The notes under the pieces were generated by a model. That model was not told the DNA's origin. It did not search any database and saw only the letters and a program-made list of their open reading frames with translations. This document shows positions 2,063 through 21,632 of a DNA stretch of 64,000 nucleotides, piece by piece; the first letter of the stretch is position 1, and every line of letters begins with the position of its first letter. This DNA is from Escherichia coli (GTDB lineage Bacteria; Pseudomonadota; Gammaproteobacteria; Enterobacterales; Enterobacteriaceae): assembly GCF_036507355.1 (NCBI RefSeq), contig NZ_AP027877.1. One strand, given 5' to 3'. Made by a program: the position numbers and the translations under genes.

Positions 2063-3613
2063 TTATACCGTAAACCCTAACATCATCCCCGTATCTTCAT
2101 GCTCCAGCAGATGGCAGTGCGCCATATAAGCATGTTCTTTCGGTGCGTCGTGATTAAACTTCACCAGCACTTCACTGACATTGCCTTCTACCTTAACGGT
2201 ATCTTTCCAGCCCGCGCGATGAGCCGCTGGCGGTTTGCCATTTTCTGACAAGATACGGAACTGCGTGCCGTGAATATGGAACGGATGCAGCATCATGTCG
2301 CCCACGCCAGAGATAACCCAACGTTCATACTGCCCTTTCGCCGCCGCAAACATCGGCTTATTCATATCAAACGCCTGACCGTTGATTTTATTGGCATGGT
2401 GGAAATCGAACTTCCCGCCGTGGTTCATATGATTCATATTGCCGTGCCCCATATGGCCCATCATCTGGCTGTGATCCATCCCGGCCATCGCCTGATCGCC
2501 ATATTTCTCCATTAGCATCTGCATCCCCATCATATCGAGCATCGGGTCCATAGAAAGTTGCAGCTTGCGTACCGTCAGCCCTTCCAGCGAAGGTAACGCA
2601 GGCAGGCTACTTAATGTGTCTGGCAAAGCACCGGAGGCACTAATAGCAATCGGCTGAATCCGCATTACCGGATGCGGCTTGTCAAACGGTGCAATCGCCA
2701 TCCCCATCTGGCTGACCGGCAGCGTCACCAGGTCAAAGGGTTTGTTGTCGTTAACCTCCACCAGCACTTCAAAACGCTCGCCCATCAGCACCGGCAGCTC
2801 GTTCACCTTCACCGGTTCAGGTAGCAGACCACCGTCGCTGGCAATCACATAAAGCGGGCGATTGTCGCTGGTGGCGAAATTGAGCGAGCGGGCATTACAG
2901 CCATTGAGCAAACGCAGGCGCAGCCAACCACGCGGGGCAGCGTGTTGCGGGTAGATTGCACCGTTGGTCAGCAACGTATCGCCAAACCAGCCCACGGCGG
3001 CGGTCATCACATCCAGTTGATAATCAATCTGCCCGTCGGCGCTAAATTTCTTATCCTGAACGATCACCGGAACATCATCGATACCCCACTGTTTTGGCAG
3101 CATTAATTTCAGGATCTCGTCATCTTCAATCACCACCAGACCAGCCAGCCCCATCGCCACCTGTCGCCCGGTCTTGCCATGTTGATGTGGATGGAACCAG
3201 CAGGTAGCGGCAGGTTGATCAACGTTCAACGTCACCGAGCGCTTGCCACCTGGCGGAATAATTCCCTGTGGGCCGCCGTCGACTTCACCCGGTACTTCCA
3301 GCCCGTGCCAGTGCAACGTCGTCTCTTCCGTCAGTTGGTTATAGATATCAACCGTTACCGCTTTGCCGCGCTGTAATTTCACCGCCGGCCCCAGCAGATT
3401 GCCGTTATAGCCCCAGGTAGTTGCAGTTTTCTCGCCAAAGGTAGACTGACCTGCGCCAATAGTTAACTGAATGCGATTACGGGCATCGGTCGTGAGCAAA
3501 TCAGGGATCGGTAACGTTGGGCGTTCCGCCGCAAAGACTGCACGGCTCCACAGTGGCAAGGCTGAAGCCACACCCAGTGCGACGGAATATTTCAAGAAAT
3601 CACGACGTTGCAT
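2063..3613 (-). CDS. cueO: Multicopper oxidase CueO (516 aa) with twin-arginine signal peptide
   Basis: ORF track 2063..3652; true start taken at the ATG giving [10 protein letters not shown]... (RR Tat motif); length and sequence match CueO from memory. Confidence 0.96.
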
Positions 3614-9434: not shown

Positions 9435-10435
9435 ATGAAAATGACTTTGCCGTTTAAACCCCATGTGCTGGCGCTAATTTGCAGTGCCGGGCTTTGTGCC
9501 GCCTCTACCGGGCTATATATAAAAAGCCGCACAGTGGAAGCGCCTGTGGAACCGCAATCGACACAACTGGCTGTGTCTGACGCTGCCGCGGTTACGCTTC
9601 CTGCAACGGTTTCCGCACCTCCCGTAACACCCGCCGTCGTCAAATCCGCATTCAGCACTGCACAAATAGATCAATGGGTCGCGCCCGTCGCGCTGTATCC
9701 CGACGCCCTACTTTCGCAGGTGCTGATGGCATCAACCTATCCGACAAACGTTGCTCAAGCAGTGCAATGGTCGCACGATAATCCACTTAAACAAGGCGAT
9801 GCTGCTATTCAGGCGGTATCTGACCAGCCGTGGGACGCCAGCGTTAAATCACTGGTGGCCTTTCCACAATTGATGGCATTGATGGGCGAAAACCCGCAAT
9901 GAGTGCAAAACCTGGGCGATGCTTTTCTGGCGCAGCCGCAGGACGTGATGGACTCGGTACAGCGATTGCGGCAACTGGCGCAACAAACCGGCTCGCTGAA
10001 GTCATCAACCGAACAGAAAGTTATTACCACAACGAAGAAAGCTGTACCGGTAAAACAGACAGTCACGGCACCCGTCATACCATCCAATACCGTTTCAACT
10101 GCCAACCCTGTCATTACAGAGCCTGCAACAACCGTCATTTCCATTGAGCCCGCCAATCCTGATGTAGTCTATATTCCCAACTACAACCCAACCGTGGTTT
10201 ACGGGAACTGGGCCAATACTGCGTATCCGCCGGTTTATCTGCCACCACCAGCCGGAGAACCGTTTGTTGACAGCTTTGTGCGCGGATTCGGCTATAGCAT
10301 GGGCGTTGCTACCACGTACGCACTATTCAGCAGCATCGACTGGGATGACGACGATCATGACCATTATCATCATGACGATGATAATTATCATCACCACGAT
10401 GGCGGTCATCGTGACGGTAATGGCTGGCAACACAA
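9435..10435 (+). pseudogene. yacH: yacH (DUF3300 family) 5' portion, carrying an in-frame TGA at 9900-9902 and ending where the IS element is inserted
   Basis: ORFs 9435..9902 and 9903..10454 are in the same frame, separated only by TGA; the frame then runs into the IS left inverted repeat at 10436. Confidence 0.85.
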
Positions 10436-10470
10436 TGAATCGCCACGGGTTTAACAGACACCTCAGAGTC
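10436..10470 (+). repeat. IS left terminal inverted repeat (IRL)
   Basis: TGAATCGCCACGGGTTTAACAGACACCTCAGAGTC; pairs with the reverse complement of 11630-11664. Confidence 0.85.
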
Positions 10471-10498
10471 ATTTAAGATGGCTTAAAGAGAGGTGCCC

Positions 10499-10777
10499 AT
10501 GAGCGGTAAGCGTTATCCCGAAGAGTTTAAAATTGAAGCAGTCAAACAGGTTGTTGATCGCGGTTATTCTGTTGCCAGCGTTGCAACACGTCTCGATATC
10601 ACCACCCACAGCCTTTACGCCTGGATAAAGAAGTACGGTCCGGATTCTTCCGCTAATAAAGAACAGTCAGATGCTCAGGCCGAGATCCGCCGTCTCCAGA
10701 AAGAGCTGAAGCGGGTTACCGACGAACGGGACATATTAAAAAAAGCCGCGGCGTACTTCGCAAAGCTGTCCGACTGA
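10499..10777 (+). CDS. IS3-family transposase OrfA (helix-turn-helix / leucine-zipper part)
   Basis: ATG at 10499 with RBS AGAGAGG; MSGKRYPEEFKIEAVKQVVDRGYSVASVATRL...ERDILKKAAAYFAKLSD, typical IS3-family OrfA. Confidence 0.88.
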   Translation: MSGKRYPEEFKIEAVKQVVDRGYSVASVATRLDITTHSLYAWIKKYGPDSSANKEQSDAQAEIRRLQKELKRVTDERDILKKAAAYFAKLSD

Positions 10778-20188: not shown

Positions 20189-20261
20189 ACAAACGGAATT
20201 GCAAACTTACACACGCATCACTGCGTAGATCAAAAAAACAATCACCGCACGAGGTTTCATA

Positions 20262-21632
20262 ATGGAAGGTCAACAGCACGGCGAGCAGCTAAAGCGCGGC
20301 CTTAAAAACCGCCATATTCAGCTTATCGCGCTGGGTGGCGCGATAGGGACAGGGCTATTCCTGGGTAGCGCCTCCGTAATACAGTCCGCAGGGCCAGGGA
20401 TTATCCTGGGTTACGCCATTGCTGGTTTTATCGCCTTTCTGATCATGCGTCAGCTGGGTGAAATGGTGGTCGAAGAACCTGTCGCAGGCTCCTTTAGCCA
20501 CTTTGCTTATAAATACTGGGGCAGCTTTGCTGGCTTCGCTTCTGGCTGGAACTACTGGGTACTGTACGTTTTAGTTGCCATGGCAGAGCTGACTGCTGTG
20601 GGTAAATACATTCAGTTCTGGTATCCGGAAATCCCAACCTGGGTTTCTGCCGCCGTGTTCTTTGTGGTGATCAACGCCATCAACCTGACAAACGTAAAAG
20701 TGTTTGGTGAGATGGAGTTCTGGTTTGCCATTATCAAAGTTATCGCAGTGGTAGCGATGATCATCTTCGGCGGCTGGCTGCTATTCAGTGGCAACGGCGG
20801 CCCGCAGGCGACCGTTAGCAACCTGTGGGATCAAGGTGGTTTCCTGCCGCACGGCTTCACCGGGCTGGTGATGATGATGGCGATTATCATGTTCTCGTTC
20901 GGTGGTCTGGAACTGGTGGGGATCACCGCAGCAGAAGCTGATAACCCGGAGCAAAGCATCCCGAAAGCGACCAACCAGGTTATTTACCGCATCCTGATTT
21001 TCTATATTGGTTCGTTAGCCGTTCTGCTCTCACTGATGCCGTGGACCCGCGTTACCGCCGATACCAGTCCGTTTGTGCTGATCTTCCACGAGTTAGGCGA
21101 TACCTTTGTGGCGAATGCGCTGAACATCGTGGTACTGACTGCGGCGCTCTCCGTGTACAACAGCTGCGTATATTGCAACAGCCGTATGCTGTTTGGTCTG
21201 GCACAACAGGGTAACGCGCCAAAAGCGCTGGCGTCTGTCGATAAACGCGGCGTACCGGTTAACACCATTCTGGTGTCTGCACTGGTAACGGCATTGTGCG
21301 TACTGATTAACTATCTTGCTCCGGAATCCGCATTTGGCCTGTTAATGGCGCTGGTGGTATCTGCACTGGTGATCAACTGGGCGATGATTAGCCTGGCGCA
21401 TATGAAATTCCGTCGCGCCAAGCAGGAACAAGGCGTGGTAACTCGCTTCCCTGCTCTGCTTTATCCGCTGGGTAACTGGATCTGCCTGCTGTTTATGGCG
21501 GCGGTACTGGTGATTATGCTGATGACCCCAGGAATGGCGATTTCGGTATACCTGATCCCGGTATGGCTGATCGTGTTAGGTATCGGCTATCTGTTTAAAG
21601 AGAAAACCGCCAAAGCCGTAAAAGCGCATTAA
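20262..21632 (+). CDS. aroP: Aromatic amino acid:H+ symporter (APC family)
   Basis: ORF MEGQQHGEQLKRGLKNRHIQLIALGGAIGTGLF...; full-length match to AroP. The codon immediately upstream is ATA. Confidence 0.95.
   Translation: MEGQQHGEQLKRGLKNRHIQLIALGGAIGTGLFLGSASVIQSAGPGIILGYAIAGFIAFLIMRQLGEMVVEEPVAGSFSHFAYKYWGSFAGFASGWNYWVLYVLVAMAELTAVGKYIQFWYPEIPTWVSAAVFFVVINAINLTNVKVFGEMEFWFAIIKVIAVVAMIIFGGWLLFSGNGGPQATVSNLWDQGGFLPHGFTGLVMMMAIIMFSFGGLELVGITAAEADNPEQSIPKATNQVIYRILIFYIGSLAVLLSLMPWTRVTADTSPFVLIFHELGDTFVANALNIVVLTAALSVYNSCVYCNSRMLFGLAQQGNAPKALASVDKRGVPVNTILVSALVTALCVLINYLAPESAFGLLMALVVSALVINWAMISLAHMKFRRAKQEQGVVTRFPALLYPLGNWICLLFMAAVLVIMLMTPGMAISVYLIPVWLIVLGIGYLFKEKTAKAVKAH

Follow-up and report, generated by a model that had tools for sequence, protein, structure and literature searches.

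Loss of the upstream codon of a tandem ATG pair at the aroP start is a common and probably neutral polymorphism in Escherichia coli

The stretch of Escherichia coli DNA examined here (the window; 64,000 nucleotides of contig NZ_AP027877.1, assembly GCF_036507355.1) carries an aroP gene flanked on one side by minus-strand open reading frames (ORFs) for aceE and pdhR, the latter divergent from aroP, and downstream by an ampE-like ORF. The same gene order, including ampE, is present in K-12, PapM-32-1 and LSU61 (context aceE-pdhR / ampE-ampD), and the aroP region of the window corresponds to that of K-12 in reverse orientation. Hits to PF00324 (AA_permease) and PF13520 are on record for the exact 456-residue protein, and all 456 of its residues are identical to residues 2-457 of K-12 AroP (b0112), a member of the APC superfamily encoded in the same pdhR-aroP-ampE context. 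Given this identity, the window protein would be expected to transport Phe, Tyr and Trp. The features at and upstream of the gene start are collected in Table 1.

Table 1. Positions of aroP and of its start-proximal and upstream features in the window.
Feature	Position	Strand	Description
P3 -10 element	20115-20120		ATACCA, complement of TGGTAT in PMC7142922; same as K-12
TyrR box	20148-20165	+	TGTAAC-N6-AACTTC; same as K-12
TyrR box	20171-20188	+	TGTAAA-N6-AATACA; same as K-12
Shine-Dalgarno-like GAGGT	20251..20255	+	putative ribosome-binding site, anti-SD consensus match
ATA codon	20259..20261	+	corresponds to K-12 aroP codon 1 (ATG); in the window, spacer before the start
SNP	20261..20261	+	A in the window; G in K-12 and ~80% of complete E. 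coli genomes
ATG start codon in the window	20262..20264	+	K-12 codon 2; first canonical start past the in-frame stop
aroP coding sequence	20262..21632	+	456 codons plus stop; aromatic amino acid:H+ symporter; from the ORF list

Elsewhere in the window, a 1229-bp insertion sequence (IS) of the IS3 family occupies positions 10436-11664. It has the terminal repeats TGAATCGCCACGG, carries two transposase ORFs that overlap, and is flanked by a duplicated 3-bp target, CAA, at 10433-10435 and 11665-11667. The element interrupts yacH, whose ORFs end at 10454 and start at 11537; the corresponding yacH site is uninterrupted in O157:H7 LSU61, and near-identical IS copies are carried on chromosomes of E. 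coli and on plasmids from several genera of Enterobacteriaceae. Besides this IS and the aceF lipoyl-domain repeats, the window contains no further IS or long repeats.

The original prediction held that the codon preceding the first ATG of aroP is ATA, that this ATG opens a 456-residue protein, and that K-12 AroP, a 457-residue protein beginning MMEGQQ, starts from an ATG that has been replaced here. The sequences agree with each of these statements. Positions 20259-20264 of the window read ATAATG, and the 456-codon ORF starts directly at the ATG. The aligned site of K-12 MG1655 (470 nt aligned around the start) reads ATGATG, not ATAATG as well, and encodes MMEGQQ...; in NC_000913.3, aroP (b0112) spans 120178-121551 (1374 nt, 457 aa) with the 5' end ...CGAGGTTTCATGATGGAAGGTCAACAG. 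The sole difference in the start region is thus a G in K-12 that is an A at 20261 of the window, and the annotated K-12 product has 457 residues against 456 for the window, where the first of the tandem ATG codons has become ATA. An in-frame TAG lies upstream of aroP at 20226-20228, and reading the sequence from this stop to 20262 reveals no canonical start.

A comparison with chance has little bearing on a single SNP; as a measure of scale, the window and K-12 differ at 42 positions across the surrounding 1873-nt region (19760-21632). The coding region of aroP accounts for 36 nucleotide differences, all of them silent, and this absence of amino acid changes against 36 silent differences indicates that strong purifying selection acts on AroP beginning with its second methionine, with a first codon that tolerates change. 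The 5' UTR holds a second SNP at 20242, which is T in the window and C in K-12 and EcN. T at this position is common to the window, E. albertii, Escherichia sp. E1V33, PapM-32-1 and strain 104, and the C of K-12 therefore looks like the derived state.

Apart from this SNP, the proximal 5' UTR and the TyrR boxes are the same in the window and K-12, and alignment reveals no differences between the two from 20021 to 20241. The TyrR box consensus is TGTAAA-N6-TTTACA, and from it we take the two elements within 20148-20188 to be the aroP TyrR boxes. We also considered whether a small upstream ORF might end at the TAA that overlaps the start (TGA in K-12). This candidate was rejected: stop codons interrupt its frame at 20173 and 20182, no canonical start follows them, and there is therefore no translational coupling. 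The P1, P2 and P3 promoters of aroP and its TyrR boxes have been described, and the divergent aroP P3 promoter drives the PAIusp island, which encodes the usp genotoxin (PMC7142922). In B2 strains, a gene that PGAP names ‘tssD’, with Pyocin_S and colicin-DNase domains, is inserted in the aroP-pdhR intergenic region and is followed by an immunity-like gene; this insert matches the published PAIusp island. Full-length coverage of the upstream region of the window's aroP is absent in about 1058 of 5423 genomes, which fits an insert of this kind.

Which of the two ATG codons serves as the start was approached through the putative ribosome-binding site, which we assign from the match of GAGGT to the anti-SD consensus. 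From the end of GAGG it is 7 nt to the ATG at 20262 and 4 nt to position 20259. In E. coli, a Shine-Dalgarno spacing of 7 nt comes near the optimum, and one of 4 nt falls close to the minimum. A degenerate-pattern search recovered 12 species-representative genomes from related genera and outgroup species, and ACGAGGTT, including GAGG(T), is conserved upstream of the aroP start in 12 of 12 Enterobacteriaceae loci found. The second ATG is constant in this set, which is partly true by construction since the search pattern starts with ATG, and its distance from GAGG is 7 nt in this set except for one genome, where it is 5 nt. E. albertii, Escherichia sp. E1V33, four Citrobacter and Intestinirhabdus have ATG as the codon before it. 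Two Pluralibacter-like genomes, Pluralibacter UBA7423 and Enterobacteriaceae bacterium 89, have ATA there, P. gergoviae has AGA and a Pluralibacter MAG has ACG, and five of the 12 genomes offer no canonical start other than the second ATG. These data point to 20262 as the start used in the window. Because of the spacing from the ribosome-binding site and the conservation across genera, the second ATG is probably also the main start in K-12, and in all alleles. A search of the ribosome-profiling and initiation-site literature for aroP yielded nothing useful on the K-12 start.

Annotation practice bears on how the two product lengths should be read. PGAP assigns a 1371-nt aroP (456 aa) starting at the second ATG in strain 104 and UPEC 536, which carry ATA, and a 1374-nt aroP (457 aa) in K-12, PapM-32-1, EcN and O157:H7 LSU61, which carry ATG. 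The 456-aa RefSeq alleles WP_000399017.1 (strain 104) and WP_000399019.1 (UPEC 536) accordingly share with the window both ATA ATG and annotation from the second ATG. Another large collection contains the exact 456-aa AroP in 67,480 blocks, and all eight contigs inspected among those with this exact product read ATG ATG (position 2998-3003 of each). The gene caller of that collection thus chose the second ATG despite the presence of the first. We had considered an exact match to the 456-aa protein as a marker of ATA, and rejected it, as this protein is also called in ATG ATG genomes. The difference between 456 and 457 residues is in part a real SNP and in part an annotation convention.

Among 5426 complete RefSeq E. 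coli genomes, 1083 contain an exact match to a 44-mer with ATA, and all its other matches have one or two mismatches. Its ATG counterpart matches exactly in 4286 genomes and yields 4336 matches in all, every one of which necessarily has G at the site, since no 28-nt seed avoids it. The alleles therefore divide about 20% ATA to 80% ATG among complete E. coli genomes. A 66-mer that includes the window's UTR is exact in 72 genomes, mostly from poultry and including named avian-pathogenic (APEC) strains, and about 1013 genomes match it at 90-95% identity, consistent with their being ATA genomes with a divergent, B2-type UTR (...ACAACACAACACGAGG..., found in UPEC 536 and JJ1887). ATA is thus found with at least two 5'-UTR haplotypes, that of the window (72 genomes) and the B2-type (about 1013), and most ATA genomes, unlike the window, carry the latter. 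EcN, also a B2 strain, has ATG and a K-12-like UTR. Tandem ATG ATG versus ATA ATG at aroP is a common, standing polymorphism of E. coli.

Because both E. albertii and Escherichia sp. E1V33 have ATG ATG, ATG is, by outgroup comparison, the ancestral state in Escherichia. The original prediction of an ATG-to-ATA substitution next to the start therefore has the right direction, with ATG carried by both of these outgroups and by PapM-32-1. The closest aroP haplotypes over 601 nt belong to four genomes, including PapM-32-1, at 99.8% identity with one base different; in PapM-32-1, which was the one checked of the four, that base is 20261 and the codon is ATG. Genomes of O157:H7 and O55:H7 strains differ at two positions over the same 601 nt. 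Strain 104 and 71 other genomes share the window's 66-nt start-region sequence exactly, and the window equals strain 104 throughout 20191 to 20455. Strain 104, which carries ATA, nonetheless differs from the window at 64 positions over 19760-21632, 41 of them within the coding sequence. The strain is similar to UPEC 536 in coding haplotype, and the aroP coding haplotypes of these two strains are separated from the window by 41-45 nt and 2-3 amino acid differences. Among the 5426 complete genomes, the combination of the window's aroP haplotype with ATA is private to the window. The ATA of the window could have arisen by independent mutation or have come in on a short recombination tract, two origins that the identity with strain 104 from 20191 to 20455 makes indistinguishable. 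For positions 10000-34000, the best matches among the 5426 genomes (O157:H7 and O55:H7 strains and strain TB06052) reach only 98.9% over 24 kb, and the lineage of the window is therefore not closely represented among those complete genomes. A Shigella origin, which the IS insertion and the 98.9% best identity had brought to mind, is unsupported, given the single IS of the window and its lack of long repeats beyond those of aceF.

The predicted fold of the initiation region depends little on the allele. Minimum free energies (MFEs) are the same for both alleles in two of three sequence contexts, and the start codon is predicted to be unpaired with a probability of 0.74-0.88 for ATA versus 0.36-0.81 for ATG, by context. 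The aroP mRNA is a verified target of the GcvB small RNA, which represses it via the R1 seed (PMC9299463, PMC11878033). We restricted the pairing prediction to this seed, as the full-length duplex output is physically meaningless. The predicted sites and energies are equal for both alleles, although these energies ignore accessibility and their absolute values are unreliable, and no seed-restricted R1 site covers 20261 with either allele. The idea that the SNP lies inside a GcvB pairing site was rejected, as the R1 predictions are unaffected by the allele. The B2-type UTR of UPEC 536 presents a separate observation. Directly before GAGG, in the interval from about 26 to 7 nt ahead of the aroP ATG (window equivalents 20236-20255), it carries ACAACACAACAC. 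This sequence complements the GU-rich R1 seed almost perfectly and is absent there in the UTRs of K-12 and the window. The predicted GcvB duplex on the B2-type UTR has an energy of -19.3 kcal/mol across the equivalents of 20236-20260, and such strains might experience stronger GcvB repression of aroP.

The original prediction also stated that the substitution shifts initiation by one codon, which assumes that K-12 initiates at its first ATG; if the second ATG is already the main start in K-12, nothing shifts. We regard it as possible, though on balance doubtful, that K-12 does start mainly at the first AUG to make 457 residues, and that ATA moves the start one codon downstream at the cost of one methionine and with no functional effect. 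RefSeq and PGAP annotate the first ATG wherever it is present, and the retention of ATG ATG in the Escherichia outgroups, Citrobacter and Intestinirhabdus suggests that this codon is not freely lost. Set against this are the mere 4 nt separating GAGG from the first ATG, compared with 7 nt for the second, the preference of another gene caller for the second ATG in ATG ATG genomes, and the replacement of the first codon by ATA, AGA or ACG in several genera and by ATA in 20% of E. coli. Even where ATG has become ATA, a minority of AroP might still be made at the full 457 residues if ATA itself acted as a weak start, which we consider highly improbable. AUA does initiate in E. coli reporters, at ~1-2% of the level of AUG (0.02-3% in other constructs) (bioRxiv 10.1101/063800), and the window likewise places an AUA at the annotated start position after a ribosome-binding site, as in known near-cognate (AUA/AUU/AUC) starts. 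However, such a start is not needed for aroP in the window, where an in-frame AUG follows directly and is better spaced from the Shine-Dalgarno element, so that initiation at AUA would be minor; its product would moreover be the form annotated in K-12, and thus without consequence.

Consequences for expression deserve separate consideration, because tandem AUG codons could in principle raise or lower initiation, which counts against neutrality. It seems unlikely that loss of the first AUG alters the efficiency of aroP initiation, through fewer competing or badly spaced initiations or a more open start region, such that ATA lineages differ in the amount of AroP. The somewhat greater predicted accessibility of the start codon with ATA would favor such tuning, as would the tight control of aroP by TyrR and GcvB and the concentration of ATA in genomes with the B2-type UTR and in a group dominated by avian-pathogenic strains. 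Shared descent alone would yield this concentration, however, and the equal MFEs in two of three contexts and the indifference of the GcvB R1 predictions to position 20261 argue against an effect. A little less likely still is that the loss is non-neutral on the scale of large lineages, changing the efficiency of initiation on aroP mRNA, for instance by removing a poorly spaced competing start. Least credible of all is a sequencing or assembly error at 20261 whose true base is G. None of the 5426 complete genomes combines the window's aroP haplotype with ATA, and the four closest 601-nt matches are each one base off, this base being 20261 itself in PapM-32-1. But the same A is present in 1083 independent genomes, divergence of ~1% from the closest complete genome over 24 kb means that private SNPs are to be expected, and a substitution outside a homopolymer is an atypical assembly artefact.

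We therefore consider it very probable that the G-to-A change at 20261 simply drops the upstream AUG and leaves AroP to be made from 20262, identical to the K-12 protein except for the first methionine, in a manner that is neutral or nearly so. By this mechanism, the change removes the first of the paired in-frame AUG codons, translation would begin at the remaining AUG, 7 nt past the conserved GAGG, and the product would be K-12 AroP minus its annotated first methionine, so that the effect would amount to at most one N-terminal methionine. The frequency of the allele and the identity of the proteins suggest that any influence on expression is probably negligible. The original view of the substitution as probably neutral fits this identity from the second methionine onward, as well as an allele carried by ~20% of complete genomes.

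Public annotation already accommodates the polymorphism by giving ATA strains 456 residues, and its importance is very small. A length of 456 versus 457 residues for AroP should not be taken as a functional difference, and our analysis suggests that the K-12 reference start, at the first ATG, may sit one codon too far upstream. Were the loss of the first AUG not neutral after all, many B2 strains, avian-pathogenic strains and, independently, the lineage of the window would differ from other E. coli in the amount of their general aromatic amino acid permease.
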